Of a DNA stretch of 64,000 bases, positions 1,555 to 57,178 are shown one piece after another. The position numbers and the translations under genes are program-made. Within the stretch, counting starts at the first letter, position 1. Every line of letters begins with the position of its first letter. The notes under the pieces are model-generated. The model was not told where the DNA came from. It searched no databases and was given only the letters and a program-made list of their open reading frames with translations. Source of the DNA: an uncultured Ignavibacteria bacterium (GTDB taxonomy: Bacteria; Zixibacteria; MSB-5A5; CAIYYT01). The stretch lies in NCBI GenBank assembly GCA_964617645.1, contig CAZTYE010000002.1, positions 374,648 through 438,647 of the forward strand, read 5' to 3'.

Positions 1555-1559
1555 AAACT

Positions 1560-2789: not shown

Positions 2790-2794
2790 AAAAA

Positions 2795-3430: not shown

Positions 3431-3433
3431 CGC

Positions 3434-4429: not shown

Positions 4430-4430
4430 C

Positions 4431-5102: not shown

Positions 5103-5115
5103 TCTCTATCGCTTC

Positions 5116-6348
5116 CTACTGAACCTGAACAATTTTTAGGATCTCATGCCAGCCAAATCCAACAGCCACGATCATGGCCAATATTATGTAGATCAGAAAC
5201 GCAGCTTTGGCGAAGTCCTGCCCTTTGAGCGAACCGAGCAATTTCGGCTCGCGCGCCAGATACGCCGACGCCGCGAAGAGTTCCTCGCCAATCAACGTGT
5301 AGTCGCAAGACGCCACAAAGAACGGCAATTGCGACGGCTGACCGGTACCGGCGATTTGAATCGCGCCGGCGGCATTGCCGGTTTCGGCGAGAATCAGCGA
5401 TTCGGCAAAGAAGGCGCCCATGTAAAACATCGTCGCAGGCTTGTCGCGCACGACCATGCCGTCGATGGCGGCGGCATAACCGAATTGGTCGTCGGTGACA
5501 TAGTGCACTTGATCTTCGCGGAAGGCATCCGGTCGGCCGGCCTTCTGGTAGGCCTCGCGAACAGCCTCCCGTCCGGTCACCATTACCAGCGACTTGCAGA
5601 CCGGCACATCGAGCATCGTGTCGTTCTCAGCGGCGATTTTCGCGACGCGACCAAGAATCGTAATTGCGGCGATTGTCTGCACATCGTCCATATCCTGAAT
5701 GCCAGGAATGAACATCACCTTGCGACCCATTTCGGTCGCGCGTCCGATGGCTTCTTCAACCGCCTCGATGCCGGCGATCCTGCGAACGTATAGCTCCTTG
5801 CCCGACTTGGCAATCTGGATGTAGATCAGAATTGCGCCGCAGATGATCAGTGTCCACAGGAAGATCCAAATTCGATTGAGATTAAACCACTGCGCGCTCG
5901 GCGCCACCGGACCAACAACCACTGATGCCGCAGCCGAGCTTAAGGCGCCGTCGGCTTTGTCCGGTGCGAATACCGCAACCACCTTATAGAAATAACTCTG
6001 TCCATCAACTAAATCGCCGTTCGTGAAACTATTCTGCCCCTGGGTCGTCTCCCCGATCACTGTGAAATCGCTATCGGCGGAATTGGCGCGCATGACCTGA
6101 TACTTGGTCACAGCGGATACGTCGTCCGGCGACAAGTCCCAGCGAATCTCCAAGCTCGTCCCATTGTCGTAGGGAGTGTCTTTAACGATAACATTCGCCG
6201 GCGGCGCCGGAACGGGAATAGTCGGAATCGCCGTTGTGACTGCTGTTGTGTCGTTGGCTGGTGGGGTATCTACTTGACCAAAAACGGAAAGATAATGAAC
6301 GAGGACGATGGCAAAGCTCAGGCTGATCAGCGATTTCAAGCCGCGCAC
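5116..6348 (-). CDS. Cassette component A, first copy: signal peptide, Fn3/Ig-like domain, TM, conserved cytoplasmic domain, C-terminal TM.
   Basis: 410 aa. N-terminal hydrophobic leader, Thr/Pro-rich linker, beta-rich segment (YQVMRANSADSDFTVIGETT...YFYKVVAV), TM (IWIFLWTLIICGAILIYI), then the domain shared with 1560..2789. Confidence 0.6.
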   Translation of the reverse strand: MRGLKSLISLSFAIVLVHYLSVFGQVDTPPANDTTAVTTAIPTIPVPAPPANVIVKDTPYDNGTSLEIRWDLSPDDVSAVTKYQVMRANSADSDFTVIGETTQGQNSFTNGDLVDGQSYFYKVVAVFAPDKADGALSSAAASVVVGPVAPSAQWFNLNRIWIFLWTLIICGAILIYIQIAKSGKELYVRRIAGIEAVEEAIGRATEMGRKVMFIPGIQDMDDVQTIAAITILGRVAKIAAENDTMLDVPVCKSLVMVTGREAVREAYQKAGRPDAFREDQVHYVTDDQFGYAAAIDGMVVRDKPATMFYMGAFFAESLILAETGNAAGAIQIAGTGQPSQLPFFVASCDYTLIGEELFAASAYLAREPKLLGSLKGQDFAKAAFLIYIILAMIVAVGFGWHEILKIVQVQ

Positions 6349-6475
6349 ATTCCTCCCAAAGTCCTCCGTCGCGAAGGGCTGATTCGTTGAGCAAACCGTG
6401 TCAATAATTAAGACGAGACAGCGTTCGGTTTGTCCAACGAAAATCGCGCCGGGAATTCAATACCGAATTGCGCGC

Positions 6476-6504
6476 AACTTAGGGCGACCCGCAGTGAGTG
6501 TCAA
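6476..6504 (-). promoter_or_regulatory. Candidate sigma-70-type promoter for the cassette operon.
   Basis: On the minus strand: TTGACA (6504..6499), 17-nt spacer, TAAGTT (6481..6476), about 125 nt upstream of the start at 6348. Confidence 0.25.
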
Positions 6505-6664
6505 GCCTAAAATCGGGAACGACTGCTCAAGCAGCGTGGCGTCTGCTCCCGTTGAATGGAGCGCTGCCGGGCGGTTAACCCGGAAGCGCTGGATTTGAGA
6601 CGTTTTGGACTAAGAGATTCGTCTCCCAATTGACACATCGAGCGCAAAAAGCGAAACAACGCCG

Positions 6665-9418
6665 CTACTTGAGCAGTACCATCTTGCGCGACGATTCGAA
6701 GGACCCAGCACGCATTCGAACAAAGTATACGCCCGAACTGATCTCGCGGCCATCGACACCCCGGCCATCCCAACTTAGGGTATAGATACCCGGAGGTCGG
6801 GGCGAGTCAGCAAGCGTTGTGACTAATTCACCCAGGCTGTTGTGAATTGTCACCGCTACATCTGCATTGTGCGGTACCTCAAAAGTGACCGCCGTTGATA
6901 GGTTGAACGGGTTCGGATAGTTCTGTCGCAGTTCAAAGTCCGTCGGCAGCGATTGCTGCGCCAGAGTACCTTTCGCCGGATCATGCACTGGCATCGTATC
7001 AGAGTAACAGCAGACATCCATGCGCCCGCTCGTCGTCGATACGGGCGCCGAAGGTCGCCCGGTGCGATCCCAAGGATCGACCGAGAACATCGTCACTACC
7101 ACCGGTTCGAACAAGTACTTGGCACAGAATCTTATAGAGTAACCCGTCAACTCCCGAAACCAGAACGTCTCGTTGTGCGAAGGATAATAGATGCGCGCAT
7201 CATATGTCAGATCGAAGTTGTTCTGGTTGAGGGGATATTGCCAGCTCAGATTCAGAACCTGCGTTGGATCGCTCCCGGATAGTTCCGGGGCGATTGCAAC
7301 ATTTCGCGGCGGATTCGGGCCGTTAACGAATGAAGCCTCCGGTGAATACTGCGGCATCCATTGGGTTTCAATGTAAGGATATACCTTATAGTAGATCCGT
7401 TCCGTTCCCGTGAGCGCTGCCAAGGCATCGTCTGTCCATGTGATGATATTTGGGCCGACAGTATCGACAATCGCGTAGATGCCATTGAGCCCTACTTTCC
7501 TTATAATAACGGTGCCCTGCTCGTTCGGATTCTTGTCGTCCCAGTTGAGCACGCAGTTGTCGGCAGCATAGTTAGGCGTAACCGTCAGCGAGGCGGGATT
7601 GTCCAACTCAACTTCACCAGCTACCGCATAGCTAAAAACAACCTCTTCGGCCCGGCATGGGTAATGGTTATCGCCACCGTCGATGTGGTAGACGTAACTC
7701 ACTAATTCGCACCCGGTCTCTGTAACGCTGCCCTCGACAACTCCTGTCCAGTACAATTCGTAGTTTGGATTTGTGGGAGCCGCGCCTGTCGATCCGGCGT
7801 GCCGTCCCCAAACAAGCGGCGGATCATAGTAGCGGCGGGGGAACGTGATTTGTTTTCGTACCTCGACACGGTCCACCCGACGGTAGACGTTCGAGATAAT
7901 GAAGCGCCACGTTTGATCCTCAATGCCGCCTATCGCCGTACCGTTGGCAGCCGTGTAGAAATCAACGGCATTGGGAAAAGTAATCGCTTTCATTGCTGCT
8001 CCCACATCGATGATTCCGTGGCCGGTGTAGATGTCGTATCCAATTGATGCCTCAGCATCAATCGTCGGAGTCACATCCGTCGCCGTCAATTTCAGCAGGT
8101 TTTCCACGTCTCTCATTTGAAGCGATTGATTGAGAGAATACAATAGAGCAGCCGAACCGGAGACCATCGGCGCGGAGCAGGAAGTACCGGAAAAATAACC
8201 AGATGTCGATTCGTCCCAAAGGGCTCGGTGAGACGTTCCGGGAGCAACCGCGTCGATGTGGAAACCAACGGCCGACTCCCAATTGTAGTTTAACGATCTA
8301 CGAACCCGCTGTCCTAGCCCGTCCGTGGCACCAACGGCGAAAACTATGTCCTTGTATCCAGCCGGGTACTGGGTGTCAAGCGGATCGCCTTCCTCGCAAC
8401 CGTCGATGTCGGTATTCCCCATTGCAGCGACGAACAACACGTCATTGATATAAGCCTCCCACACGGCCTCGATGAAACTGTGATTCAGGCCAAAGATGTC
8501 GCAGAAACCGTTACTGTAATTGACAACTCTTACATTGGATCCAATTAGATTGTACAGCGAACCAATGTCCTCCCACGAATGGTGATCAGTCTTATAAAGC
8601 CAGAGGCGACAACCTTTGTTGCCAGTTCCGCCAATCGGATCATAGGACCAACCCCCGGCTATACCGGCAGAAAGGCCGCTAAAATTCGGATTGGGCAGGT
8701 GATAGTTGTTGGTCAACCCAGCGGCAATACCAGCGACAGAAGTGCCGTGGTTTCGGCTTGGTTCACCGGCTGGCGGTTGAATGGGACTGGCATTGACGTA
8801 TTGAACCTTTCCGTATGGCCCCGCATCGCCGAAGTCGTCATTCTGAATATAGAAGCCATTATCCAGAACGGCGATGGCCACATTCGGATCGCCGGTCTCG
8901 ATCGACCAAGCGACTTCCGCGCCAATGCCATAGTAATTTGAACTCCTGAACCCCCAATTGAAACCGCTCACGTAGTCATAGTCATTTGGGGCTATGTTTG
9001 GCTTCGTAATGAAGCCCGGTGTGAATGAGACAACTTTCGACACGGTGTCGAGCGCGGCGCGCACGTCGGTTGAACCGCGCGCGGTCGGCCATTTCGCGAT
9101 CACCATATTGGCCATCGTGATTGGCGGCAATCCCAAAATGTCGCGAACAGTAAGCTGTTTGTCGCGATAGTCGGGTATCGGTCGGTCGCCAAGTCTCCGA
9201 ATGCTGTCGATGCCGGCGCTGATTAGCGCGGCCCGCAGCGACTCATCCATGTGATCGACTTGGAGAATACCCGTGAAGGAAACGGGGACGCCTTCTATCA
9301 GGCGTGCGTCTTCAACGGCAATGATTCCGATGCCCGGCACCTCCTGTGCGAATACAACCGAGCAAAGAAGAAGATAGATGCCCCCAATACTGAGCAATAC
9401 GATCTTGAGTGATTGCAT
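6665..9418 (-). CDS. Subtilisin-like serine peptidase (S8 family) with T9SS C-terminal sorting domain.
   Basis: 917 aa. Signal peptide; catalytic triad motifs AVLDNGF (Asp), HGTSVAGIAAG (His), GTSCSAPMVSGSAALL (Ser); C-terminus LRQNYPNPFNLSTAVTFEV...VYFVRMRAGSFESSRKMVLLK matches the Por/T9SS secretion tail. Confidence 0.8.
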   Translation of the reverse strand: MQSLKIVLLSIGGIYLLLCSVVFAQEVPGIGIIAVEDARLIEGVPVSFTGILQVDHMDESLRAALISAGIDSIRRLGDRPIPDYRDKQLTVRDILGLPPITMANMVIAKWPTARGSTDVRAALDTVSKVVSFTPGFITKPNIAPNDYDYVSGFNWGFRSSNYYGIGAEVAWSIETGDPNVAIAVLDNGFYIQNDDFGDAGPYGKVQYVNASPIQPPAGEPSRNHGTSVAGIAAGLTNNYHLPNPNFSGLSAGIAGGWSYDPIGGTGNKGCRLWLYKTDHHSWEDIGSLYNLIGSNVRVVNYSNGFCDIFGLNHSFIEAVWEAYINDVLFVAAMGNTDIDGCEEGDPLDTQYPAGYKDIVFAVGATDGLGQRVRRSLNYNWESAVGFHIDAVAPGTSHRALWDESTSGYFSGTSCSAPMVSGSAALLYSLNQSLQMRDVENLLKLTATDVTPTIDAEASIGYDIYTGHGIIDVGAAMKAITFPNAVDFYTAANGTAIGGIEDQTWRFIISNVYRRVDRVEVRKQITFPRRYYDPPLVWGRHAGSTGAAPTNPNYELYWTGVVEGSVTETGCELVSYVYHIDGGDNHYPCRAEEVVFSYAVAGEVELDNPASLTVTPNYAADNCVLNWDDKNPNEQGTVIIRKVGLNGIYAIVDTVGPNIITWTDDALAALTGTERIYYKVYPYIETQWMPQYSPEASFVNGPNPPRNVAIAPELSGSDPTQVLNLSWQYPLNQNNFDLTYDARIYYPSHNETFWFRELTGYSIRFCAKYLFEPVVVTMFSVDPWDRTGRPSAPVSTTSGRMDVCCYSDTMPVHDPAKGTLAQQSLPTDFELRQNYPNPFNLSTAVTFEVPHNADVAVTIHNSLGELVTTLADSPRPPGIYTLSWDGRGVDGREISSGVYFVRMRAGSFESSRKMVLLK

Positions 9419-11478: not shown

Positions 11479-12726
11479 TCACACCCGGGCTTGCGGCCGA
11501 CCGGCGAACGAAAGCGTCTGCGCGGCGGCATCAAGCACGACTGCGATTTTGGCGTTTTGTCCATATTGATCAATCAAATCGTCCAATGTATTTTGCGCAT
11601 CCGCCGTCGGCCGAATCGGCAGATCCAGCAGGACGCGCGAATCAAGCTTTGAGCATAGCACAAGGCGTAGGCGCTTGGCAAGAGCGATTGTGCGATGGAC
11701 TTTGTGGATGCCCATCATCCCTCTTTCGCCCGTTGCTGATGCTGGAATTTTGCCGGTTGCGATCTGAGCGGCGATCTTCAGGAATCGATCATCCCCGATT
11801 CCCTCCGCACAAGCCGAGATCAGCAGGATCGTCCCCCCCTCGCGAACCGCCGCGGCGACGTTCTCGTATGACTTCTGCAACTGGTACAGGTTGCGATCCA
11901 ATGGCGGGTAGACGACGCTGATTACGACATCGAACGGCTCGCGGACTTCATGCCCGAAGTTCGTCGCGACGTACTCGCAACACCGGTCGTAAGTCTGATC
12001 CCAGTCGCCGCTGGCCGCAAAGTATACCCGCTGCTTGTGATCACAGACGACCTGAATCGCGAGGCGATCTTTGCCATTGAGAGACTGCGTTCGCGCGAAG
12101 ATGTCTTCCCAAACCGGATTGCCGCTTCGTTTCAGCGGTTGGCTCTCAGCGCTGACGGCGCAAGCATGATTGCGCTCGACATCACGGAATGAAGCGCAGC
12201 CCGGCAGGATGATTTTGCGGCCACCGGTAAACCCGGCAAAGTAGTGCGGCTCGACCGAGCCGATGATCAGAATCGCTTCCGCCCAAGCGAGCCAGTCGTT
12301 GAGCCGCACGGCGTCTTCGCCCGATCCGAAGTCCGCCAGCTCGATTTCGTTGAATGCATCATGGACGCGAATCCGCTTGCCGATGCGATCCGCCCAGGCC
12401 CCGAAGATCTTCTGCGGATTCGAGACCTGTGCGCCTTGGTGCAATCCTGTCGCGACGAGGAATCGCAAATGCGACATGTCCATGCCCGGCAAAATGCGGT
12501 CGAGAATCGCCGCCGTCGGCGTCGGGCGGAAGGCATCATTGACGACGATTAACGTCCGGCCTGACGAGCGAAGAAAGTCGTGAATAGCATGCGGGAGAGT
12601 TCCCTGCTTGAGCCAATGCGAATCATCGATCGGCCGCAGGCGTTTGGCTGGTAGATCGAAGACCACCGCCGCATCAGGAATCGACAGGGGAATTGATGTG
12701 TCATCGTAGTGGACTTGGATGATCAT
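11479..12726 (-). CDS. LarA-family (nickel-pincer-nucleotide-dependent) 2-hydroxyacid racemase/epimerase-like protein (DUF2088).
   Basis: 415 aa with the LarA-like GFTGGRK-type motif (HYFAGFTGGRKIILPG). Length and architecture match lactate racemase homologs. Assignment by family resemblance only. Confidence 0.5.
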   Translation of the reverse strand: MIIQVHYDDTSIPLSIPDAAVVFDLPAKRLRPIDDSHWLKQGTLPHAIHDFLRSSGRTLIVVNDAFRPTPTAAILDRILPGMDMSHLRFLVATGLHQGAQVSNPQKIFGAWADRIGKRIRVHDAFNEIELADFGSGEDAVRLNDWLAWAEAILIIGSVEPHYFAGFTGGRKIILPGCASFRDVERNHACAVSAESQPLKRSGNPVWEDIFARTQSLNGKDRLAIQVVCDHKQRVYFAASGDWDQTYDRCCEYVATNFGHEVREPFDVVISVVYPPLDRNLYQLQKSYENVAAAVREGGTILLISACAEGIGDDRFLKIAAQIATGKIPASATGERGMMGIHKVHRTIALAKRLRLVLCSKLDSRVLLDLPIRPTADAQNTLDDLIDQYGQNAKIAVVLDAAAQTLSFAGRPQARV

Positions 12727-12794
12727 ATCGCGAGAACCCGTTCACAGTCGTCAGTCCGGATCGCGCAATGTTCCAACTGGACGACAACGTCTCC

Positions 12795-12854
12795 ATTCCC
12801 CTCTTGAAAGGGGTGCTGTCCCGCGGCTTGTTGCGGGACGGCGGGCTGTGTCAT
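12795..12854. repeat. Short palindrome-rich element; a second copy lies at 55932..55992.
   Basis: attcccctcttgaaaggggtgctgtcccgcggcttgttgcgggacggcgggctgtgtcattc versus attcccctcttgagaggggtgctgtcccgcaccatcggtgcgggatggcggggtgtgtcactc. Two internal hairpins (cccctcttgaNagggg; gtcccgc...gcgggac). Confidence 0.7.
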
Positions 12855-12912
12855 TCAGCCTTCTCGCCCCGCCGCGGCCAAACAGTGCCCGCGTTCTGTA
12901 AGAATGCGTGAC

Positions 12913-13323
12913 CTACTTGACGTCGCCGAAATGAAAACGAATCTCGATCGCGCCGTTCTCGACCGAGTCCGAACCGTGCACCGAATTCTTGCCGAGATCG
13001 ATCGCAAAATTCTGCCGGATCGTACCGACTGCCGCCTTCTTGGGGTCGGTGGCGCCGATCAATTCGCGAAAGGCGTTGACCGCATTCTCGCGCTCCAAAG
13101 CGGCGACCACAATCGGCGACGACGACATAAACGCCACCAACTCATCGAGAAACGGTTTGCCTTCATGCACTCTGTAGAACTCGCGCGCTTGCGCCGTAGT
13201 CAAGTGAACCATTTTCAGCGCCACGATCTTGAAACCCGACGCTTCCACGCGTCCGAGAATCGTTCCGGTGAGATTGCGTTCCACCGCATCCGGCTTAATC
13301 ATCATTAATGTGCGTTCTTTCAC
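12913..13323 (-). CDS. ndk: Nucleoside diphosphate kinase.
   Basis: 136 aa. MIKPDAVERNL...NAVHGSDS-type Ndk signature (GKNSVHGSDSVENGAIEI). Confidence 0.9.
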   Translation of the reverse strand: MKERTLMMIKPDAVERNLTGTILGRVEASGFKIVALKMVHLTTAQAREFYRVHEGKPFLDELVAFMSSSPIVVAALERENAVNAFRELIGATDPKKAAVGTIRQNFAIDLGKNSVHGSDSVENGAIEIRFHFGDVK

Positions 13324-13928
13324 TATTTCAATCCTTGTCTGGCTTCTTTGCCGACCCTGAGACCAAGCTCAAGCGCCGCCATGTTCTTCTCTTCGGTGCC
13401 GCGTGGCGAGCGCTTCTGCACGATCTTGGTCAGCGCGCCGACCGTGATCACGTCCGTCACCGCGCAAATCGCGCCGAGGGAGATGACGTTGGCAACCATT
13501 GGCAGACCGATTTCATGGCGCGCCAGTTGGCTAAACGGGATTCCCACGGTGCGGGCGAACGGCGTCTGTGTGACCAGATGGGAATCGACAATCATGATGC
13601 CGTGATCTTTGAGCGCATGATGATACAGATCGCACGACTCTTGCGTCATCGCCAAGAGCAGGTCGAGCGCCATCGGCTTGGGATAGTAGATCTCGTTTGG
13701 TGATATCACCAAATCAGTGCGCGAGGCGCCGCCCCGCGCTTCGGGGCCGTAACTCTGCGTTTGCACGACATTCTTGCCGTCGATTGTCGCGGCGGCTTCG
13801 GCGAGAATCACTCCCGCCAGCACCAGCCCCTGACCGCCCGAACCCGAGAGGCGAATTTCATAGCGATCGAACGATTGCGCCGGTTCATGCTGCTCGGCAT
13901 GACCTTTGCCCTTGGTTTTGGTCGTCAT
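13323..13928 (-). CDS. korC: 2-oxoacid:ferredoxin oxidoreductase, gamma subunit.
   Basis: 201 aa. RLSGSGGQGLVLAGVILAEAA motif of the Por/Kor gamma family. Operon position after the beta subunit. Confidence 0.75.
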   Translation of the reverse strand: MTTKTKGKGHAEQHEPAQSFDRYEIRLSGSGGQGLVLAGVILAEAAATIDGKNVVQTQSYGPEARGGASRTDLVISPNEIYYPKPMALDLLLAMTQESCDLYHHALKDHGIMIVDSHLVTQTPFARTVGIPFSQLARHEIGLPMVANVISLGAICAVTDVITVGALTKIVQKRSPRGTEEKNMAALELGLRVGKEARQGLK

Positions 13929-39509: not shown

Positions 39510-39640
39510 GAGGGCTGTTGAAAAGCCCTATGAGCTGTCACCCTGAGCGGAGCGAAGGGTCTGTTATCCTTGTGTCGCATCGGAAAACAGATTCTTCGCT
39601 TCGCTCAGAATGACATGAATATGGCTTTTTCAACAGTCCC
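39510..39640. repeat. Dispersed ~135-bp imperfect-hairpin element, copy a (MITE/REP-like).
   Basis: ctgttgaaaagccctatgagctgtcaccctgagcg...gaagggtctgtt...aacagattcttcgcttcgctcagaatgacatgaat...tttttcaacagtc. Termini and internal segments are mutually complementary. Lies in the convergent intergenic region between 37336..39381 and mscL. Confidence 0.75.
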
Positions 39641-39709
39641 CTTGCTGTGGGTGAGTCAAGCAGCTTGAGCCGTCTCGCGAACTGACAACCCCGATCCCCG
39701 CCGGAGCGC

Positions 39710-48691: not shown

Positions 48692-48780
48692 CATGCGCTC
48701 TTTGATTGCCTCGGTGAACGGTAATCGCCGGGGAAGGAAACAGACCAGGCTTCCCCGCGGCACATGAAGACGATCACCTG

Positions 48781-48811
<31 letters not shown>

Positions 48812-48941
48812 GGCGCGTTTGCATTGCGCGGGACCTGGTCAGTTTCAGACTTCCCCGGCGCCAAGCGATAATACCGCGACGACGGCGGCGAGTCAATCGC
48901 CAAATTCCCCTTACTCCCGTATAGATGAAGATCATCTTGCG

Positions 48942-49007
48942 CACATACGGTGTAGCGGCAGGAATCACTCCGGCTCACACAGTGCGGCGGCAGGAATCAC
49001 TCCAGCA
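48942..49007. repeat. 32-bp head-to-tail tandem repeat, array 1 (2 units).
   Basis: Units cacaYagtgYRgcggcaggaatcactccRgcW directly abutting with no spacers. Confidence 0.8.
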
Positions 49008-49009
49008 CA

Positions 49010-49148
49010 CGGGACTGTTGAAAGAGTCCTATAGGCTGTCACCCTGAGCCGCTGCGCAGGCGAAGGGTCTGTTGGTATTGCTGCACAAGGCCAAGCAGAT
49101 TCTTTGCTGCGCGCAGAATGACATAAATTAGATTTTTCACCAGTCTCA
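49010..49148. repeat. ~135-bp imperfect-hairpin element, copy b.
   Basis: cgggactgttgaaagagtcctataggctgtcaccctgagccgctgcgcaggcgaagggtctgtt...agattctttgctgcgcgcagaatgacataaattagatttttcaccagtctc. About 97% identical to copy c. Confidence 0.75.
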
Positions 49149-49276
49149 CACACTGTGCAGCGGCAGGAATCACTCCGGCTCACACAGTGCAGCGGCAGGA
49201 ATCACTCCGGCTCACACAGTGCGGCGGCAGGAATCACTCCGGCTCACACAGTGCGGCGGCAGGAATCACTCCAGCA
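49149..49276. repeat. 32-bp tandem repeat, array 2 (4 units).
   Basis: cacactgtgcagcggcaggaatcactccggct repeated 4 times with point variants. Spurious ORFs 48965..49183(-) and 49234..49440(-) in the track are translations of these repeats. Confidence 0.85.
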
Positions 49277-49277
49277 C

Positions 49278-49416
49278 ACGGGACTGTTGAAAGAGTCCTA
49301 TAGGCTGTCACCCTGAGCCGCTGCGCAGGCGAAGGGTCTGTTGGTATTGCTGCACAAGGCCAAGCAGATTCTTTGCTGCGCGCAGAATGACATGAATTAG
49401 ATTTTTCAACAGTCTC
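49278..49416. repeat. ~135-bp imperfect-hairpin element, copy c.
   Basis: Near-identical to copy b. Confidence 0.75.
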
Positions 49417-49578
49417 ACACAGTGCGGCGGCAGGAACCACTCCGGCTCACACAGTGCAGCGGCAGGAACCACTCCGGCTCACACTGTGCGGCGGCAGGAA
49501 TCACTCCGGCTCACACAGTGTAGCGGCAGGAATCACTCCGGCTCACACAGTGCGGCGGCAGGAATCCCTTCCTGCCGC
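49416..49578. repeat. 32-bp tandem repeat, array 3 (about 5 units, last unit degenerates into a perfect 10-bp-stem hairpin).
   Basis: Units with aacc/aatc variants. Terminal gcggcaggaatcccttcctgccgc forms gcggcaggaa/ttcctgccgc. Confidence 0.85.
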
Positions 49579-49747
49579 GTTTCGGGCAGTCAGGAAAAGA
49601 TATCTAACCGCGCAGCATTGAACCGTCCAAAGCATTTCCATTGTTCTACTTTCGGCGAGCGAGTTAGTCCTTGATTTCCCTCGCTCCCCTTGATAATTTC
49701 TTCACTAACTTTCGCTCGGGGCGGCGAATGCACTTAAGGAGTCGAAG

Positions 49748-51265
49748 ATGTCTTCTGAACAACGTCGCTTGCCGAAATTGACATACAACTGGATCAGCGC
49801 GCTCGGCGCCTTCATCGCCGTCGCAATGGCGCTGGTGCTGGTCGTGATGTTGATCATCAATTTCACCCTCGAACAGACCGGCGCCTATTTCGGCATCTTC
49901 CTCTATATGGTGCTCCCGGCCATTCTGATTTTCGGCCTGCTTCTGATCCCGGTTGGCATGCTCCGCACCTGGCGGCGCTGGAAAAAGGGCGACAAAGTCG
50001 AAATCCCGACTTGGCCGCTGATCGACCTCAATCGCCGCGGTCATCGCAATGCGACCATTGTCTTCATCGCCGGCACCGTGCTCTTCTTGGTGATTACGGC
50101 GGTCGGCAGCTATGAGGCCTACCACTATTCCGAGTCAGTAGAATTCTGCGGCACGACTTGTCACACCGTAATGGAGCCGCAACATACCGCCTATCAGGGT
50201 TCGCCGCACGCGCGCGTCGCCTGTGTCGAGTGCCATGTCGGCACCGGCGCCGGCTGGTACGCCAAATCCAAGCTTTCCGGCGCCTATCAGGTCTACGCGA
50301 CCATCGCCAATGTCTACCCGCGTCCGATCCCGACTCCGATTCGCGATCTGCGTCCGGCGCGGGAAACCTGCGAAGAATGCCACTGGCCGCAGAAAACCTA
50401 CGGCATCGCGCTGCGCAGCTTCACCCATTATCAGTACGATGACGCCAACTCCAAGTGGACTACCGATATGCGAATCATCACCGATACCGGCGAACCGCAT
50501 GAAGGCCAGAAGGCCGGCATTCATTGGCATATCAATCCCGATGTCACGGTCGAGTACATCGCCCGCGACCGGCAGCGCCAGGACATCCCCTGGGTGCGGG
50601 TCACCGAAAAGTCCTCGGGCAAAGTTACCATCTACGAAGACGAATCCAACCCGCTCGATAAATCAGCTCTCGACACACTCGAGGTTCGCGTGATGGACTG
50701 CATCGATTGTCACAACCGCCCGAGCCACGTCTACCGGCCGCCGGATTACGCCGTCGACCGTGCGATTCAATCCGGATTCATCGATCGGTCACTGCCCGGC
50801 TTCAAAGCCGTCGCCGTCGAAGCGATGGCCGGCGAATACGAAACCAAAGATCAGGCGCTCTCGGCGATTTCGACGCGGATCAACGATCACTATCAGGCGG
50901 CCGGTTTGCTCGGCGACCCGGCCAAGCGCCAAGCGGTGCAGTCTTCAATCGCCGGCGTACAGGCGGCCTTCCGGCAGAACATCTTTCCGGAAATGAAAGG
51001 GATGTGGAAACACTACCCGAACAACATCGGCCACTTCTCCGACAAAGGCTGTATGCGCTGTCACATGGGCACGCACAAAAGCGCGGCCGGCGCGGTGATC
51101 ACTCACGATTGCAACGCCTGTCACACGATCCTGGCGCAAGGCCCCGAGGGCGCGATTGTCCGCGATTCGACCGGACAAGGCCTCGAGTTCAGGCATCCGG
51201 TCGACATCGACGAAGCCTGGCGCGAAACCGGCTGCTTCGACTGCCACACTGGCGTGCAACCGTAA
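49748..51265 (+). CDS. Inner-membrane multiheme c-type cytochrome, ImcH-like / NapC-NirT superfamily (7 heme-binding motifs).
   Basis: 505 aa. Two N-terminal TM helices. Six CxxCH (CVECH, CEECH, CIDCH, CMRCH, CNACH, CFDCH) plus one CX3CH (CGTTCH). Confidence 0.65.
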   Translation: MSSEQRRLPKLTYNWISALGAFIAVAMALVLVVMLIINFTLEQTGAYFGIFLYMVLPAILIFGLLLIPVGMLRTWRRWKKGDKVEIPTWPLIDLNRRGHRNATIVFIAGTVLFLVITAVGSYEAYHYSESVEFCGTTCHTVMEPQHTAYQGSPHARVACVECHVGTGAGWYAKSKLSGAYQVYATIANVYPRPIPTPIRDLRPARETCEECHWPQKTYGIALRSFTHYQYDDANSKWTTDMRIITDTGEPHEGQKAGIHWHINPDVTVEYIARDRQRQDIPWVRVTEKSSGKVTIYEDESNPLDKSALDTLEVRVMDCIDCHNRPSHVYRPPDYAVDRAIQSGFIDRSLPGFKAVAVEAMAGEYETKDQALSAISTRINDHYQAAGLLGDPAKRQAVQSSIAGVQAAFRQNIFPEMKGMWKHYPNNIGHFSDKGCMRCHMGTHKSAAGAVITHDCNACHTILAQGPEGAIVRDSTGQGLEFRHPVDIDEAWRETGCFDCHTGVQP

Positions 51266-51450
51266 ACGAGCGCTAGCACACCAGGATCTGCCGGACTCAC
51301 CGGTCGGGAATCTGGACTGACGCCCGCCTGTCAAGTCTGAAGTTGTCCCGGGTTTCGGCTCATACCCCCAATTCCGATCAGATTACGCTGAATAATCCAT
51401 TTTGAGGTGTATTCTTGTCCCCAAAATCTCCCCAACCGATCCCTAAAGTT

Positions 51451-51466
51451 TGTGATGTTTTTCACG
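51451..51466 (+). promoter_or_regulatory. CRP/FNR-family site, distal.
   Basis: tgtgatgtttttcacg = TGTGA-N6-TCACg (9/10 to CRP consensus TGTGA-N6-TCACA). Confidence 0.4.
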
Positions 51467-51568
51467 ATACTATTCAACAAGATGCGAATACATGACAATT
51501 TCATGACAGTTTTTGTTGACCGAGTGTCTGAAACACAATAGTATGCGCACGATATCATGGAGGACTTT

Positions 51569-51584
51569 TGTGACAGTTTTCACA
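51569..51584 (+). promoter_or_regulatory. CRP/FNR-family site, proximal (perfect consensus).
   Basis: tgtgacagttttcaca = TGTGA-N6-TCACA, about 60-75 nt upstream of the decaheme start codon. Consistent with a class-II activator position. Confidence 0.45.
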
Positions 51585-51645
51585 AACACGCTGGCGGCTG
51601 TCACAGATGACAAAGATGGACTTCATACTCTTTCACGGGGTTAGT

Positions 51646-52599
51646 ATGCATAGACACCTAACGAAACCAACCCCGCTAATTCTGTGCATCACCACGACAT
51701 TGCTGATCGCTTTTATCGCCCTTGCCGGCCCCCCATTGTGGGCCGAAAACGGCGAAAGCGACGCGCAGTGTCTCGAGTGCCATCAGGATATGGCGGACAA
51801 TCTGGTTGACGGCAAACACGCACTGACCAAACCCAAAGGCGGCGAACGAATCGCGGTGACCTGCATCGGCTGTCACGGCGACTGGGAGAAGCACATGGAC
51901 GACCCGGAAGCCCACAAGCCGATCGTGCCGTCCAAGCTGCCGATCATTAGGCAAGCCGATGCCTGTGCTTCGTGCCATCAGAACGAGCATCAAATGACGA
52001 TGATCACGACTGATCCGCACAGTCGCAGCGGCCTGCCCTGCTCAAGTTGCCATAAGATTCACGACAACGTCAATGCCGCATCGCTGATCGATGCCGAAGG
52101 CAACTTCTGCCTGACCTGCCACCAAACGGTCGGCGCGCAGTTTGCGTCCCGTTCGGCGCATCCGCTGCACGAGGGTAACGTGCAATGCAACGATTGCCAC
52201 CCGATGAACGACCGCAAGGATCACCAACTCGCGCTCGGATTCGACTGGACCTGTCAGACCTGTCACGCCGAAGTCGCCGGGCCGTTCGTTTACGAACACC
52301 CGGTCAGTTACAATCATCTCGTGCAGGGTGGCGGTTGTGTCGAGTGCCACAGTCCGCACGGATCGCCGAATGAACGGCTGCTGAATCAGCCGGGCAACGG
52401 CGTCTGCTTGCAGTGCCATGGCGTTCCGCCGGGGCATCGCACCGCCCATTCCGGCATGGCGGTCAAAGTCGACTGCGTCAATTGTCATACCGACATCCAC
52501 GGTTCAAATGACAATCGCCTCTTCCTTGACCCGATGCTGACGACCACCTTCTACGCCAACTGTTATGCCTCGGGCTGCCACGACAATTTGAAGAAATGA
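51646..52599 (+). CDS. Periplasmic decaheme c-type cytochrome (MtrA/DmsE-like).
   Basis: Signal peptide from MHRHLTKPTPLILCITTTLLIAFIALAGPPLWA. Ten CxxCH motifs (CLECH, CIGCH, CASCH, CSSCH, CLTCH, CNDCH, CQTCH, CVECH, CLQCH, CVNCH) plus a C-terminal CX4CH. About 320 aa like MtrA. Confidence 0.7.
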   Translation: MHRHLTKPTPLILCITTTLLIAFIALAGPPLWAENGESDAQCLECHQDMADNLVDGKHALTKPKGGERIAVTCIGCHGDWEKHMDDPEAHKPIVPSKLPIIRQADACASCHQNEHQMTMITTDPHSRSGLPCSSCHKIHDNVNAASLIDAEGNFCLTCHQTVGAQFASRSAHPLHEGNVQCNDCHPMNDRKDHQLALGFDWTCQTCHAEVAGPFVYEHPVSYNHLVQGGGCVECHSPHGSPNERLLNQPGNGVCLQCHGVPPGHRTAHSGMAVKVDCVNCHTDIHGSNDNRLFLDPMLTTTFYANCYASGCHDNLKK

Positions 52600-52610
52600 G
52601 GAGAACGATC

Positions 52611-54167
52611 ATGAAGACGCTTAAGCTATTCAGTATCGCGGCGATGATCCTTCTTCTCGGCGTATCCACTTCATTCGGAGCCGGCGGATCCGGCGAGGTC
52701 AAGATCGGATACGTCTATCTCGACGAAGAAGGCAACCAGTCGTCGTACCATCCGACATTCAACCTCTACGAAGGCCCGACCTTCTCGCTGGAAGGATTCC
52801 GCTATCGTTTCGATAACGGTCTCTTGCTGCGCGCCAATCTCGAGAATGTGATCATGAACAATCGCAACTTGAGCGCGTCGCTGTCCAAGCCGGGTCTTTT
52901 CGATCTGCGCGTTGGGCATGACCAGTTCCGCCGCATCTACAGTTTCGATGAGTCCGCCTACACGCGCCGTCACACCGAGCGCGCCTCGCTATCGGTGTAC
53001 GTGCTGCCGCAAATAGAAGTGTTCGGTGGCCTGTTGATGCAGGAACGCACCGGCAAGTCGGAGGATCTTTTCGACCCCAAACCGGTGGCGCGCACCGTCG
53101 AAGTCGACTACCAGCGCATGTTCTTCAATGCCGGTTTGCATGTCTTCCACCACGGCTCGACGATCACCGGCGAGTATCGCGGCGATCAGTTTACCGACAA
53201 CCGCTCCAGCGCTCGCGATCAAATGCGCAGCGAATTCCGTCTCGCCGGTCTGATTTCGATCCCGCGGTATAGCTGGATCAAAGCCGTCGGCGGCTTCCGT
53301 CATTACGAGACGAAATTCGACGAGAGCGACTTCGGCATCTCCAACAACCGCGGCTACGGCGGCGGTCTGGTGCTGCTGCCGCAGAATGTCTCGGTCAAGT
53401 ACGTCGGCGTGCTCGACCGCACCTCGTCCGATTCCGATTTCGTCGCCACTGATAACATGACGCATTCGGGTTATGTGTCCTGGGAAAAGCCGCAGAAATT
53501 CGGCTTCACCGCCGGATATCAATTCGATGTCAACGACGATTACGAAGACGAAGTTCGCGCTAACTCCAGCTACTTCAGCTTCTGGTCAAAACCGGCCAAG
53601 GGCTTCGAGTGGCGCGGCGAGTACGGCATGCGCAAGGAGGAAATCGAGGACGGCGTCCGCCTGACCGGCGACGAGGAATACAACCGTCATCGCACCAGCG
53701 CCAAGTATCGCCACGAAAAGTACGGTTCGATCGGCGTCAAGTGGGACAGCCGCGAGCGCGACAACGACCAGCTCGGCTCGTCGCTCGATATGAACCGTTT
53801 CGGCATCGACGGCGTGCTCTTGGTCGAGAAATACGGCCATATCAATGCCGGGTATGTTTACGGCAAAGGCGAATACGAAAACCGCGAGGCGATGTTCGAG
53901 TTCACCGATCATCTCGTCTTCGGCGATGTGACGACCAAGGAATACAAGGGCGTCACGCTCGGCGGCGGCGCTTTGTACTACCGCAGCAGGCGCGATCTCG
54001 ATGTCGAACACTTCAACGTGCGCTTGACCGGCGCGCTTCGCTTCTATCAGGACTATCGTCTCGAGGTCGAATACAACGCTTACAATTTCGATGACTTGCT
54101 GGTGCTGGATGAGTACTACACCGGCAATGTGGTTCAGATAAGTTTGATCAGAGGATTATCGTTCTAA
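52611..54167 (+). CDS. Outer-membrane beta-barrel porin (MtrB/PioB-like partner of the decaheme cytochrome).
   Basis: Signal peptide MKTLKLFSIAAMILLLGVSTSFGA. Alternating-hydrophobicity strands throughout. C-terminal ...VQISLIRGLSF with terminal Phe. Start overlaps the upstream stop. Confidence 0.6.
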   Translation: MKTLKLFSIAAMILLLGVSTSFGAGGSGEVKIGYVYLDEEGNQSSYHPTFNLYEGPTFSLEGFRYRFDNGLLLRANLENVIMNNRNLSASLSKPGLFDLRVGHDQFRRIYSFDESAYTRRHTERASLSVYVLPQIEVFGGLLMQERTGKSEDLFDPKPVARTVEVDYQRMFFNAGLHVFHHGSTITGEYRGDQFTDNRSSARDQMRSEFRLAGLISIPRYSWIKAVGGFRHYETKFDESDFGISNNRGYGGGLVLLPQNVSVKYVGVLDRTSSDSDFVATDNMTHSGYVSWEKPQKFGFTAGYQFDVNDDYEDEVRANSSYFSFWSKPAKGFEWRGEYGMRKEEIEDGVRLTGDEEYNRHRTSAKYRHEKYGSIGVKWDSRERDNDQLGSSLDMNRFGIDGVLLVEKYGHINAGYVYGKGEYENREAMFEFTDHLVFGDVTTKEYKGVTLGGGALYYRSRRDLDVEHFNVRLTGALRFYQDYRLEVEYNAYNFDDLLVLDEYYTGNVVQISLIRGLSF

Positions 54168-54179
54168 GAGGAGGTTAGT

Positions 54180-55265
54180 ATGAAAGTCCTTAACGCACTA
54201 TTAATCGTCATGTTGGTGGCCGGAATGGCGCTGCTCTCAGGATGCGAGCGCAAGATCGTCAATGAAGTCGCCAACAACGACCAGTCGCTGCTCGGTTGCT
54301 TCGGCTGCCACGGCGAAACCAGTTTCGACGGCGCTCTGCAGCAGGCGCGCGGCGAATGGGAAAACTCGTTCCATGCTTCGGGCATCAGTATCGACTACAC
54401 GAACCGCCCCGGTTCGGACTGTCAGCAATGCCACAACCATCAGGGCTTCCTCGATTGGCTGGCGACCGGCGAAGAAGACTCACTGGCGCTTGGCACGGTC
54501 AGCGCGATCCACTGCTTCACCTGCCACGCTCCGCATGAACGCGGCGATCTGACGCTGCGCGTAACTGAGCCGTACACGCTGAAGAATGGCGTCGTCTTCG
54601 ATCATGGCGCCGCCAATCTCTGCGTACAGTGTCACCATTCACGCACGAGCATCGCGACTGATATCGCCGGCGGCGACACGTTGCGCTTCATTCCGAGTTC
54701 AAGAATGGGCCCGCATCATGGACCGCAAGGCGACAATCTGCAGGGTACGCACGCCTTCCAATTCGGCGCTACGCCGTATGCAAGCTCGACCCACGCGACC
54801 GTCGTTCGTGACGGCTGTATCGGCTGCCACATGGGTAATCCAACTCAGCATGACGGTTACCAGATCGGTGGCCACAGTTTCAATATGCAATTCGAATCCC
54901 ATGACGGAACGACCTATACTCTCGTCGGCGTCTGTCAGTCCTGCCATGCCGGCTACGCCGGTAAGAGCACATTTGATGATGCGACCGTGTTCAATAAGGA
55001 CGTTGATGGCGACGGCGTAGTCGAAGGTATCCAGACCGAATTCGACGGTCTTCACGACTCGCTCGGCGTTTTGTTAGCCAAAGTGATCAACCCGGCGACC
55101 GGATTGTTCCGCACGAATGTGAAAGTCACTCGCGGACAGCAAGGCGCGGCGTACAACTGGAAGATCTACGACGAAGATCGCTCGCGCGGCATGCACAATC
55201 CGAAGTACTTTGAAGCAATGCTCAAGGCCTCGATTGCGCACATGGTTGCCAATCCGATTCCGTAG
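54180..55265 (+). CDS. Outer-membrane lipoprotein hexaheme c-type cytochrome.
   Basis: Lipobox LLSGCE. Six CxxCH (CFGCH, CQQCH, CFTCH, CVQCH, CIGCH, CQSCH). Confidence 0.65.
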   Translation: MKVLNALLIVMLVAGMALLSGCERKIVNEVANNDQSLLGCFGCHGETSFDGALQQARGEWENSFHASGISIDYTNRPGSDCQQCHNHQGFLDWLATGEEDSLALGTVSAIHCFTCHAPHERGDLTLRVTEPYTLKNGVVFDHGAANLCVQCHHSRTSIATDIAGGDTLRFIPSSRMGPHHGPQGDNLQGTHAFQFGATPYASSTHATVVRDGCIGCHMGNPTQHDGYQIGGHSFNMQFESHDGTTYTLVGVCQSCHAGYAGKSTFDDATVFNKDVDGDGVVEGIQTEFDGLHDSLGVLLAKVINPATGLFRTNVKVTRGQQGAAYNWKIYDEDRSRGMHNPKYFEAMLKASIAHMVANPIP

Positions 55266-55330
55266 ATTCGTCCCTCCCGGCGACGTAGCTTTCAGGTTGC
55301 GGCCGCCTTTTGTTAGAGCGTTTCAAGACA

Positions 55331-55367
55331 ACCCTTCGGGTCGCCCGACCCGAAGGGTTTTTGTTTG
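55331..55367 (+). terminator. Rho-independent terminator of the cytochrome operon.
   Basis: acccttcgggtcgcccgacccgaagggtttttgttt: 11-bp GC-rich stem plus T-tract, 66 nt after the stop at 55265. Confidence 0.7.
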
Positions 55368-55518
55368 CCCTACACTCGATCGGAACGGCGCGGCGCCCAA
55401 ATGATGGCTCCGGCAATTGCTGGAGTGCCACATCGGAAGGGACGCTTGAAAAAGTCAGTGAATCACTCAATGTGAGGCGGCAAGAGTCCTTTCCTGCCGC
55501 AACTGAAGCGGTCAGTCA

Positions 55519-55643
55519 AGTCAAGTAGGTCAGGAGCTCTGCGCTCCTGACATCACGCCGCAGGCGTGATAATCGTGGGCGCGAATTCACACCGTCCCCC
55601 GCTTTCGAGGCCGAAGGCCGCGCAATGCGCCAACGTCGCATTC
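55519..55643. repeat. ~125-bp direct repeat, copy 1 (copy 2 at 55786..55910, about 85% identical).
   Basis: agtcaagtaggtcaggagcYctgcgctcctgacatcacgccgcaggcgtgaYaatcgtgggcRcgaatt... Contains hairpins gtcaggagc/gctcctgac and tcacgcc/ggcgtga. Confidence 0.7.
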
Positions 55644-55785
55644 CCACTATTTCTGTTGCGCAGAGTCTTCCGAGTACCGCGTGCGGGACGAGGGCGACTC
55701 GGCGCCCTCACTCCCACCACTCTGGTGGGGCACCAAAAGGTCTCGACGACCCCCGATTCCGTCATTCCGGCGAAAGCCGGAATCC

Positions 55786-55910
55786 AGTCAAGTAGGTCAG
55801 GAGCCCTGCGCTCCTGACATCACGCCGCAGGCGTGACAATCGTGGGCACGAATTTACATCGTCCCGCGCTCCAGCGGCCGAATGCCGCGCAATGCGCCAT
55901 CGGCGCATTC
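55786..55910. repeat. ~125-bp direct repeat, copy 2.
   Basis: See copy 1. Confidence 0.7.
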
Positions 55911-55931
55911 TTCGGCGGCGCAGCCGCTTCA

Positions 55932-55992
55932 ATTCCCCTCTTGAGAGGGGTGCTGTCCCGCACCATCGGTGCGGGATGGCGGGGTGTGTCAC
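55932..55992. repeat. Palindrome-rich ~60-bp element, second copy of 12795..12854.
   Basis: attcccctcttgagaggggtgctgtcccgcaccatcggtgcgggatggcggggtgtgtcactc. Confidence 0.7.
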
Positions 55993-56114
55993 TCGCGGGC
56001 GCATCGTCCCGCAAAGCGCAGGTCCTTCGGCCATGTGCTCCCACGCGCCACACTGCCCGTCGCGCAGGGGCGCTTCGCGCCGTGCCTTGCCCTTGTCATC
56101 CGTGCCCCACCGGA

Positions 56115-56246
56115 AGGGACAGTTGAAAAAGCCCTATAGGCTGTCACCCTGAACGAAGTGAAGGGTCTGTTTTCCTTCTGGCACAACGGCAAACAGATTC
56201 TTCGCTGCGCTCAGAATGACATGAATCCGGTTTTTCAACAGTCCCG
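56115..56246. repeat. ~135-bp imperfect-hairpin element, copy d.
   Basis: gacagttgaaaaagccctataggctgtcaccctgaacgaagtgaagggtctgtt...aacagattcttcgctgcgctcagaatgacatgaatccggtttttcaacagtcc. Convergent intergenic region between the OM cytochrome and the CoA-binding gene. Confidence 0.75.
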
Positions 56247-56713
56247 GAACGGTGGGATTCCCCCTCTCCCTGTCAGGGAGAGGGGCAGGGGTGAGGGTCA
56301 TTTTCCTCCCCCAACCCCGTAAACTCGTAGCATTCCACTACAATTTTCCCCCATCGGACCCTTAGTAGAGGCACGATTGTAATCGCGGATGATTTCACCC
56401 GCCGATCTCGCCCTCGTACCTGACGTGTTCTTTGGCGGCCGCCATTGTCGTAAAAACGCGAACCGCGGCAGGACAAGGCGTCGAGATCAAATCCAAACTC
56501 CGGTGGCTTGCGACGCCGGTAACCGGATGCGAGAAGATCAACCGCAGTGCAATCGCTTCAGAACCGTCGTTCGGGATTTCCGGAAACGTGACGCTCACAC
56601 TGGGCGCGGCGCAACGTGAAAGTCCGATCAGGCACCTGATTAGCTCGAGCTATGCCCTATTTTTTGCGAAAGGACAAACTTAGCGAGAAACACGAGACTC
56701 AAAGAACCGACAC

Positions 56714-57178
56714 TTACTTCGGAACTCTCCCCGTAATCTTGGCGAACCACCAATGCAGATTATGCGGAAAACCCGGATTCGGGAGAAACATGAACGGACA
56801 GTGTCCTTCAATCACGTCGATATGATGTTCGCGGCAGTAGGCGACAGCGTTCGGGCTTACCGCGCCGGCTCCCACCGCGCGATACAGCCAGACACTCTTG
56901 ATTCCGGCCGCGTGACATTCGCGGACGATGTCTTCCGTGACTTCCGGCTTCGTCATGATCAGCGCTCCGGTGACGGGCGGAGTGATCTCTTTGACCGAGG
57001 CGAAACAATGCCGCTCGTCGATCAACGACACCATCGGATTGACCGGAACGACGTCATAGCCGCGCTTCCACAATTCGTGCATTAGCGAGCGCGAAAAATC
57101 CTTCGGTTCGCGCGCCACACCGATCATCGCGACGCGCTTTTGCGACAGGAACGATTCGATTTGTGATCGCTGGGTCAT
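56714..57178 (-). CDS. CoA-binding domain protein (YccU-like).
   Basis: Start at MTQRSQIESFLSQKRVAMIGVAREPKDFSRSLMHELWKRGYDVVPVNP (CoA_binding_2 signature). Confidence 0.6.
   Translation of the reverse strand: MTQRSQIESFLSQKRVAMIGVAREPKDFSRSLMHELWKRGYDVVPVNPMVSLIDERHCFASVKEITPPVTGALIMTKPEVTEDIVRECHAAGIKSVWLYRAVGAGAVSPNAVAYCREHHIDVIEGHCPFMFLPNPGFPHNLHWWFAKITGRVPK

Follow-up and report, generated by a model that had tools for sequence, protein, structure and literature searches.

How much of the path from the quinone pool to the cell surface is encoded by four adjacent genes is the question raised by positions 49748-55265 of a 64,000-nucleotide stretch of DNA, hereafter the window (assembly GCA_964617645.1, contig CAZTYE010000002.1, positions 374,648 to 438,647 of the forward strand), which was deposited as an uncultured Ignavibacteria bacterium and is placed by GTDB in the Zixibacteria. 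The interval is filled by four co-directional open reading frames (ORFs) on the + strand, here called genes A, B, C and D. An earlier note, made by a model from the letters alone, had read them as a complete conduit from quinol to the cell surface, the last three suggested to be one operon. The reading reached here is narrower: with a probability of about 0.65, B, C and D make up a single regulated operon that encodes a porin-cytochrome conduit of the MtrAB type, most likely carrying electrons outward, with A feeding it separately. B is a homologue of the periplasmic decaheme cytochromes MtrA and DmsE, C is predicted to have the fold of the outer-membrane barrel MtrB and D is a hexaheme lipoprotein; the order of the three is conserved in related loci, as are Crp/Fnr-type sites in front of B.

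The four genes and their relatives

All four genes were present in the ORF list of the 64-kb window in the order and at the positions that had been claimed, and the heme counts (seven sites in A, ten CXXCH motifs in B and six in D) held when they were recounted. Residue shuffles of A, B and D gave a mean of 0.01-0.13 CXXCH motifs and never more than two, so the observed counts are far above chance. Elsewhere in the 64 kb, ORFs have at most one CXXCH motif each.

Related genome loci were found by a locus scan with a 12-sequence alignment of the barrel protein C, a 41-sequence barrel alignment being too diverse for the scan, and were numbered L001-L040. Most of the 40 are Zixibacteria metagenome-assembled genomes (MAGs), some carry the submitter label 'uncultured Ignavibacteria' and one belongs to the Calditrichota. 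The majority of the named homologues of A, C and D are from Zixibacteria, and proteins identical to A, C and D are encoded on a contig of 488 kb at NCBI.

The decaheme cytochrome B

The longest ORF of gene B runs from 51607 to 52599 (330 aa). The conserved start is the ATG at 51646, which gives a protein of 317 aa (51646-52599, + strand), and ACGGGGTTnnTATG is invariant in the alignment of upstream regions. The protein opens with a hydrophobic signal segment, after which come the ten CXXCH motifs and, at the C-terminus, a CX4CH motif (CYASGCH at residue 319, numbered in the 330-aa ORF). The NCBIfam model of the DmsE family, TIGR03508, matched B over profile positions 3-257 of 258 (E 3e-50), and the best sequence match in the PDB was chain A of 6R2Q, to which residues 53-302 of B align (65-325 of the chain; E 8.2e-25) with all ten heme motifs matched. 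The molecule label of that chain in the PDB is wrong, and we take the chain to be MtrA. From the end-to-end profile match and the match to 6R2Q chain A it follows that B is a homologue of MtrA and DmsE, as had been suggested; a nitrite or hydroxylamine oxidoreductase, the alternative against which the decaheme was to be checked, was rejected on this homology. The TIGR03508 score of 171 bits lies under the curated cut-off of 192.2, which places B, as judged by the profile, just beyond the curated boundary of that family. The model of the GSU2203 family gave 148 bits against a cut-off of 325.

MtrA in the solved Mtr complex has its C-terminal heme turned towards the outside. By analogy the CX4CH motif of B may be an eleventh heme site that lengthens the wire at its outer mouth. 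The motif (52560-52580, residues 319-325) is part of a family-specific C-terminal tail, FLDPxL...C[YF][QA]SGCH, which is kept in most homologues; C-x-CH was found instead in L031, L033 and L035, and there is a gap in L030.

The outer-membrane barrel C

Gene C (52596-54167, + strand) encodes 523 aa, or 518 aa from an alternative start at M6, which agrees with the NCBI call for the identical protein. The protein has no cysteine and ends in ...GLSF, an aromatic beta-signal at the C-terminus, the consensus end of the family being SF. An AlphaFold2 model based on the 41-sequence alignment (predicted local distance difference test, pLDDT, 90) has 26 strands and a signal helix at residues 2-22, in keeping with the barrel, furnished with a signal peptide and ending in Phe, that had been proposed. 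When the model was compared with the PDB by Foldseek, MtrB (6R2Q_B) came first with E 8.7e-16 and a query template-modelling (TM) score of 0.81. The runners-up were TonB-dependent receptors at E ~3e-8 and TM scores of about 0.5 (0.52 for the next match), which leaves MtrB with a lead of eight orders of magnitude in E-value.

A search of PDB sequences with the family profile of C found no MtrB, and the link of C to MtrB is therefore one of fold only. The Pfam model MtrB_PioB (PF11854) gave 21.1 bits, under its cut-off of 23, over residues 68-184 only, and a homologue of C, P0007, has a precomputed match to the same model. A HMMER search of 1.84 billion representatives with the C family returned 178 proteins only, and the full-length members among the matches listed are all of 504-557 aa. 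That the family might form a sequence bridge to MtrB and PioB was considered and rejected, the family of 178 representatives being small and closed. The predicted structure thus gives C the fold of MtrB, yet the protein sits in a small and compact sequence family of its own.

The hexaheme lipoprotein D

Gene D (54180-55265, + strand) encodes 361 aa with six CXXCH motifs and a lipobox, LLSG/C22. Its description as a hexaheme lipoprotein is upheld by 46 homologues, in which G21-C22 is invariant and the E-R-K after it, like the six heme motifs, varies little or not at all. Residues 22-29 (54243-54266), C-E-R-K-V/I-V-N-E, are almost invariant across the same homologues, a degree of conservation suggesting that the stretch may be a sorting or docking signal.

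The AlphaFold2 model of D (pLDDT 76) has three long helices at its C-terminal end, and in this predicted model D shares the fold of NrfA, octaheme nitrite reductase (ONR) and OcwA with its C-terminal three-helix bundle. Among the closest solved folds are OcwA and OmhA, two NrfA-family cytochromes that Gram-positive iron reducers carry on the cell surface. The family profile of D matched the C-terminal module of NrfA and octaheme nitrite reductases (E 1.8e-5), the significant part of the match being confined to that module and lying outside the catalytic-heme region of NrfA. Pfam C552 reached 20.2 bits on residues 202-354, under its cut-off of 24.1, and the sequence similarity of OcwA to D was not significant (E 0.37). 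The features of the MtrC/OmcA family (TIGR03507; two pentaheme and beta-barrel domains, at least ten hemes) were not found in D. A match to PF22113, domain II/IV of MtrC and MtrF, covered residues 32-159, a poorly modelled region, at 30.9 bits against a cut-off of 30 and recurs in most D homologues. D is judged not to be MtrC-like and to belong by predicted fold to the NrfA/ONR/OcwA family.

No catalytic CXXCK heme motif was found in D, its six motifs all being conserved as CXXCH. Eight conserved histidines lie outside these motifs and are available as distal ligands for the six hemes, so all of the hemes could be bis-His. For these two reasons a role as the end of a wire is favoured for D over a catalytic one. 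An invariant or near-invariant histidine pair, H179-H180 (54714-54719), lies in the motif GPHHGPQ. In the literature paired histidines sit beside the open-coordination hemes of OcwA and OmhA; a phmmer search of D residues 110-259 against the PDB, meant to align H179-H180 with the active-site histidines of OcwA, gave zero matches. The third gene of the Calditrichota locus, L032 (5944-8055), encodes 703 aa with 13+1 heme motifs, the D-like part being C-terminal, which indicates that the outer component varies in size while B and C are constant.

The inner-membrane cytochrome A

Gene A (49748-51265, + strand; 505 aa) has, by its motifs, hydropathy and homology, the architecture of ImcH, a heptaheme quinol:cytochrome oxidoreductase. 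Its seven heme sites are a CX3CH (CGTTCH) at residue 134 and CXXCH motifs at 159, 208, 318, 435, 455 and 496. The earlier suggestion of an ImcH-like inner-membrane cytochrome with seven sites was therefore sound, but the two transmembrane segments that went with it have to be replaced by three N-terminal hydrophobic segments, at about 11-46, 43-75 and 100-124. ImcH of Geobacter sulfurreducens (GSU3259, 507 aa) has transmembrane segments at 13-35, 45-67 and 100-122 and hemes at 132 (CX3CH), 156, 205, 311, 428, 448 and 486, and the motifs of an ImcH homologue from Omnitrophica lie at 135, 159, 208, 317, 434, 454 and 494 (PMC6295460 Table S3). When coordinates, rather than aligned sequences, were compared, the transmembrane and heme positions of A and GSU3259 agreed within a few residues. 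NapC/NirT (PF03264) matched residues 102-188 of A, and the NrfH model TIGR03153 (108-213) and the NrfH structure 2J7A_C (102-213) span the third transmembrane segment and the first three hemes. The family of A is very large and shows good conservation, with more than 7,900 full-length relatives, the named ones being from Zixibacteria, Krumholzibacteria and Thermoanaerobaculia.

Operon structure and regulation

A and B are set 341 nt apart, or 380 nt when B is counted from its conserved start. With C starting at 52596, its first 4 nt overlap the end of B, and 12 nt separate C from D. In the 40 related loci the order B-C-D holds wherever the contig is long enough to show it, the genes being spaced by about -4 to +25 nt, and B adjoined C in 40/40.

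Two palindromes of the Crp/Fnr type were found 5' of B on the + strand, 118 bp apart. The proximal one, TGTGACAGTTTTCACA (TGTGA-N6-TCACA, 51569-51584), is perfect and lies 77 nt from the start of B, and the distal one, TGTGATGTTTTTCACG (TGTGA-N6-TCACG, 51451-51466), has one mismatch and lies 195 nt from it. The former is the only perfect match in the 64 kb, and the pair accounts for two of only three matches when those with one mismatch are included. Between the palindromes lies a sigma-70-like sequence, TTGACC-17-TAGTAT (51516-51544, + strand), a consensus match that may not be the promoter type of Zixibacteria; its TTGAC is largely conserved in relatives. The pair recurs at like positions in ten related loci (-196 and -77 from most called starts), and five more have a single site. 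The distal site stands at -196 in L001-L003, L007-L009 and L025 and at -166/-197 from the called starts in L004-L006. The perfect proximal site stands at -77/-78 in L001-L003, L006-L009, L012, L015 and L025, at -47 in L004/L005 and at -59 in L010/L011, and L013 has a one-mismatch form at -79. Half-sites that are invariant, with variable spacers, at fixed positions constitute a phylogenetic footprint of a regulator of the Crp/Fnr family. A gene for such a regulator was not found among the ~30 ORFs of the window or the eight neighbours scanned in L001 and L010. At the other end, an intrinsic terminator-like hairpin (55330-55359, + strand; 13-bp stem with 8 GC pairs, then TTTTGTTT) begins 65 nt after the stop codon of D.

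No Crp-type site was found upstream of A. The spacing and the predicted sites show B-C-D as a regulated unit of its own and mark A as a separate transcription unit. The proposal of one operon for the last three genes thus stands, but to include A in it would be an overstatement, given the long A-B gap with its promoter-like and Crp/Fnr-type sites and the fact that an A-type gene adjoins B-C-D in only 9/40 related loci, on either side and on either strand.

Neighbours of the cassette in other Zixibacteria

Other Zixibacteria have CbcL-like fusions of multiheme and FdnI domains, a 9-heme protein and a tetraheme of ~180 aa near the cassette, none of which is in the window. The fusions, with 8 or 19 hemes and a b-type domain of the FdnI/HydC kind, were found in L016 at 970-3576 (-) and 3779-6574 (-), and the 9-heme protein is in the same locus at 12264-13535 (-). 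The tetraheme directly follows D in L022 (10835-11383) and L028 (10768-11358) and is the obvious candidate for a periplasmic carrier of the sort absent from the window. The ImcH-like, CbcL-like and tetraheme neighbours tie the cassette to cytochromes of the quinol pool. In two relatives that were checked a haloacid dehalogenase (HAD) hydrolase lies upstream of the cassette, and in L001 a pyridoxal phosphate (PLP) decarboxylase lies downstream.

Proposed mechanism and alternatives

The preferred reading would work as follows. After export to the periplasm, decaheme B would pass through the lumen of C, the barrel of 26 strands, so that the heme chain of B would span the outer membrane, with the CX4CH-bearing C-terminal end pointing to the cell exterior by analogy with MtrA. 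This outer end would meet the lipid-anchored D, which, at the outer face, would act as the final electron-exchange protein. A, the ImcH-type protein, whose gene is transcribed apart and has only a loose linkage to the cassette, would take electrons from menaquinol and deliver them to the periplasm, where a soluble cytochrome encoded elsewhere would bridge A and B; in other Zixibacteria the quinol-side role that is ImcH-type here would be taken by CbcL-type cytochromes. Net flow would most likely be outward, in the respiration of extracellular or high-potential acceptors, e.g. Fe(III) and Mn(IV). In Geobacter, ImcH is the quinol oxidase required for reducing high-potential acceptors (PMC4251993).

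Several points count against this scheme and must be set beside it. The position of D in the periplasmic or the external leaflet cannot be read from its sequence, and the N-terminal half of its model is of low confidence (pLDDT <50 at residues 24-75). To our knowledge the CERKVVNE tail of D resembles no described lipoprotein surface-export signal of Bacteroidota, those described being acidic. The window has no gene for a periplasmic carrier cytochrome, and A is absent near the cassette in the ten closest relatives. The statement in the earlier note that the genes specify the entire route was accordingly too strong, both for want of that carrier in the window and in view of the 9/40 loci in which A adjoins B-C-D. 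As to direction, MtrAB homologues run both ways, depending on the organism, and Castelle et al. preferred to read the cluster of Zixibacteria as one for Fe(II) oxidation (PMC3903129).

Were flow reversed, B and C, with or without D, would take electrons from extracellular Fe(II) or a reduced solid, as MtoAB and PioAB do, and pass them to the quinone pool, via A or another inner-membrane cytochrome, or to a terminal oxidase. Besides the argument made by Castelle et al. in 2013 for Zixibacteria RBG-1, a later survey placed Zixibacteria among the iron oxidisers, and both the order of decaheme before barrel and the absence of a decaheme of the MtrC/OmcA family recall mtoAB and pioAB. We nevertheless regard inward flow as unlikely. 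Its main premise, that there is no outer cytochrome, is weakened by the lipoprotein hexaheme found after the barrel wherever the locus is long enough to include it; the ImcH- and CbcL-type neighbours correspond to the quinol oxidases of Geobacter; and in one survey ImcH homologues were found in Fe(III) reducers only (PMC6295460). A different possibility concerns D, which might be an NrfA-family enzyme for a soluble nitrogen or sulfur compound (nitrite, hydroxylamine or sulfite), either fed through the conduit at the surface, as DmsEF feeds the extracellular dimethyl sulfoxide reductase of Shewanella, or working in the periplasm. The profile and fold matches to the C-terminal module and three-helix bundle of NrfA and ONR point that way, one homologue is named nitrite reductase c552 in database entry P0089, OcwA reduces nitrite and hydroxylamine in vitro according to the literature, and the conserved H179-H180 pair has a counterpart in the paired histidines near the open-coordination hemes of OcwA and OmhA, though no alignment links the pairs. 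Such an enzyme is improbable all the same, since D has no CXXCK, its profile match misses the catalytic-heme region, its conserved non-motif histidines suffice for six bis-His hemes, its Pfam C552 score is under the cut-off and, at 361 aa, it is much smaller than NrfA or ONR.

It is also conceivable that A has no functional relation to B-C-D and was brought beside it by local rearrangement only. A does not adjoin the cassette in 31/40 related loci, the ten closest loci included, it has a separate promoter region without an upstream Crp-type site, copies of an element resembling a miniature inverted-repeat transposable element (MITE) bracket the cluster (~49010-49145, ~49280-49415 and ~56113-56248), and the family of A, with its >7,900 matches, is very broad against the 178 representatives of the barrel. 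The adjacency, however, recurs in nine independent and divergent Zixibacteria loci with differing arrangements, which argues for selection rather than chance, and any such conduit requires some inner-membrane quinol dehydrogenase, so an accidental association seems doubtful. Within the preferred reading, in which B, C and D form an outward conduit, a bolder proposal can be made, if tentatively: that the cassette represents a distinct class of conduit, in which an MtrA-like wire of eleven sites, housed in a compact barrel of 26 strands, passes electrons straight to a surface lipoprotein of the OcwA/NrfA fold, D perhaps having an open-coordination heme and acting as a surface enzyme, all under a switch of the Crp/Fnr family. 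If true, the MtrAB machinery of diderms would here be connected for the first time with the terminal reductases of Gram-positive metal reducers.

Flanking repeats and other features of the window

When 48700-56800 was scanned permissively against Rfam, the one match was the bacterial small signal recognition particle (SRP) RNA, at 48740-48840 (-) with 65.5 bits, just upstream of dnaX-ybaB; the non-coding flanks of the cluster thus correspond to no known RNA. The longest ORF of dnaX (start 48763) overlaps this RNA, and the true start is therefore probably a Met near 48664. In the 900-nt gap between the SRP RNA and A, a tandem unit of 32 nt, CTCACACAGTGCGGCGGCAGGAATCACTCCGG, occurs 11 times, grouped into three blocks (48877-49610), with no Rfam match and no credible ORF. 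A reading of these repeats as CRISPR (clustered regularly interspaced short palindromic repeats) was rejected, the period being too short and spacers lacking.

The MITE-like dispersed element is ~135 nt long with terminal inverted repeats, GGGACTGTTGAAA...TTTTTCAACAGTCyC, and has four copies, all in + orientation. Two are upstream of A and interleaved with the 32-nt repeats and one is downstream of D, which is how the cytochrome cluster comes to be bracketed; the fourth lies at ~39510-39645. A 128-nt direct repeat (55516-55643 and 55783-55910; 89% identical, 267 nt apart) lies within the 1.4-kb non-coding stretch after D, and the palindrome GTCAGGAGCnCTGCGCTCCTGAC is found in each copy. Further away, an S8 subtilase of 917 aa (6665-9418, - strand) has a C-terminal domain of the FlgD_ig type. 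Domains of this type are common in cargo of the type IX secretion system (T9SS), in agreement with a host of the Fibrobacterota-Chlorobiota-Bacteroidota (FCB) group, and the subtilase is probably the T9SS cargo to which the earlier note had referred.

Comparison with known systems

The closest solved counterpart is MtrCAB of Shewanella (6R2Q), with which the cassette shares an MtrA-homologous decaheme, a 26-strand barrel of MtrB fold and a lipoprotein multiheme cytochrome as the third part. Regulation of the Shewanella mtr genes is known to depend on Crp, and the pair of Crp-type sites 5' of B adds to the likeness. The differences are nevertheless many. The gene order here is decaheme, barrel, lipoprotein in place of the C-A-B of mtrCAB, an order unusual relative to Shewanella only, as the lipoprotein is also encoded last in Geobacter extABCD. 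The barrel is ~125 residues shorter than the solved Shewanella chain (523 against 649 aa), falls outside the MtrB_PioB cut-off and the reach of profile searches, and, being free of cysteine, is without the N-terminal CXXC of Shewanella MtrB. B has an extra C-terminal CX4CH compared with Shewanella MtrA, the third protein has six hemes and the NrfA/OcwA fold where Shewanella has the staggered-cross decaheme of the MtrC/OmcA family, and the inner-membrane partner is ImcH-type rather than CymA.

The OmaB-OmbB-OmcB and ExtABCD systems of Geobacter likewise combine a periplasmic multiheme cytochrome, a barrel and a lipoprotein multiheme and have ImcH/CbcL-type partners. The periplasmic part here is of the MtrA/DmsE type and, as judged from the GSU2203-family model (148 against 325 bits), probably unlike that of Geobacter. 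With MtoAB and PioAB the cassette has in common a decaheme followed by a barrel and no gene of the MtrC/OmcA family, but it differs in its conserved third gene for a lipoprotein cytochrome and in that the partner in the window is ImcH-type and not CymA or MtoC/MtoD. OcwA of Thermincola potens (6I5B) and OmhA of Carboxydothermus ferrireducens (6QVM) have nine and eleven hemes and belong to Gram-positive bacteria without a barrel partner, whereas D has six hemes and a lipid anchor and is seated in an MtrAB-type operon.

Within the phylum itself, the cluster of Zixibacteria RBG-1 has MtrA and MtrB homologues co-located with further multiheme cytochromes, and its ImcH homologue has been catalogued (PMC6295460 Table S3). 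The view that such conduits are poorly documented in this lineage was mistaken, MtrAB clusters of Zixibacteria having been in the literature since 2013 (PMC3903129) and again later (PMC4411801, PMC7005843, PMC9769843, PMC10809760). The authors of that work and of later MAG surveys found no extracellular cytochrome and leaned to Fe(II) oxidation (PMC3903129); here, by contrast, a conserved lipoprotein hexaheme directly follows the barrel. The constant lipid-anchored third gene and the frequent ImcH/CbcL-type neighbours remove the main published argument for oxidation only. Zhong and Shi reported in 2018 that mtrAB is never next to imcH (PMC6295460), whereas an imcH-type gene adjoins the cassette in this window and in 9 further loci. 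Zixibacteria, which abound in sediments and aquifers rich in iron, are without a cultured member and have been classed in surveys as iron reducers or oxidisers from 'mtrAB' matches alone. Two of the cassette's three parts escape the standard models for MtrB/PioB and MtrC, so surveys that depend on these markers will under-call or mis-describe the system, for which B-C-D provides a defined three-gene unit of about 3.6 kb. The kind of system and its presence in the phylum were already known and the gain is an incremental one; what appears not to have been stated before is the third gene and its fold, the separate barrel family, the extra motif in B, the adjacency of imcH and the Crp-type sites.

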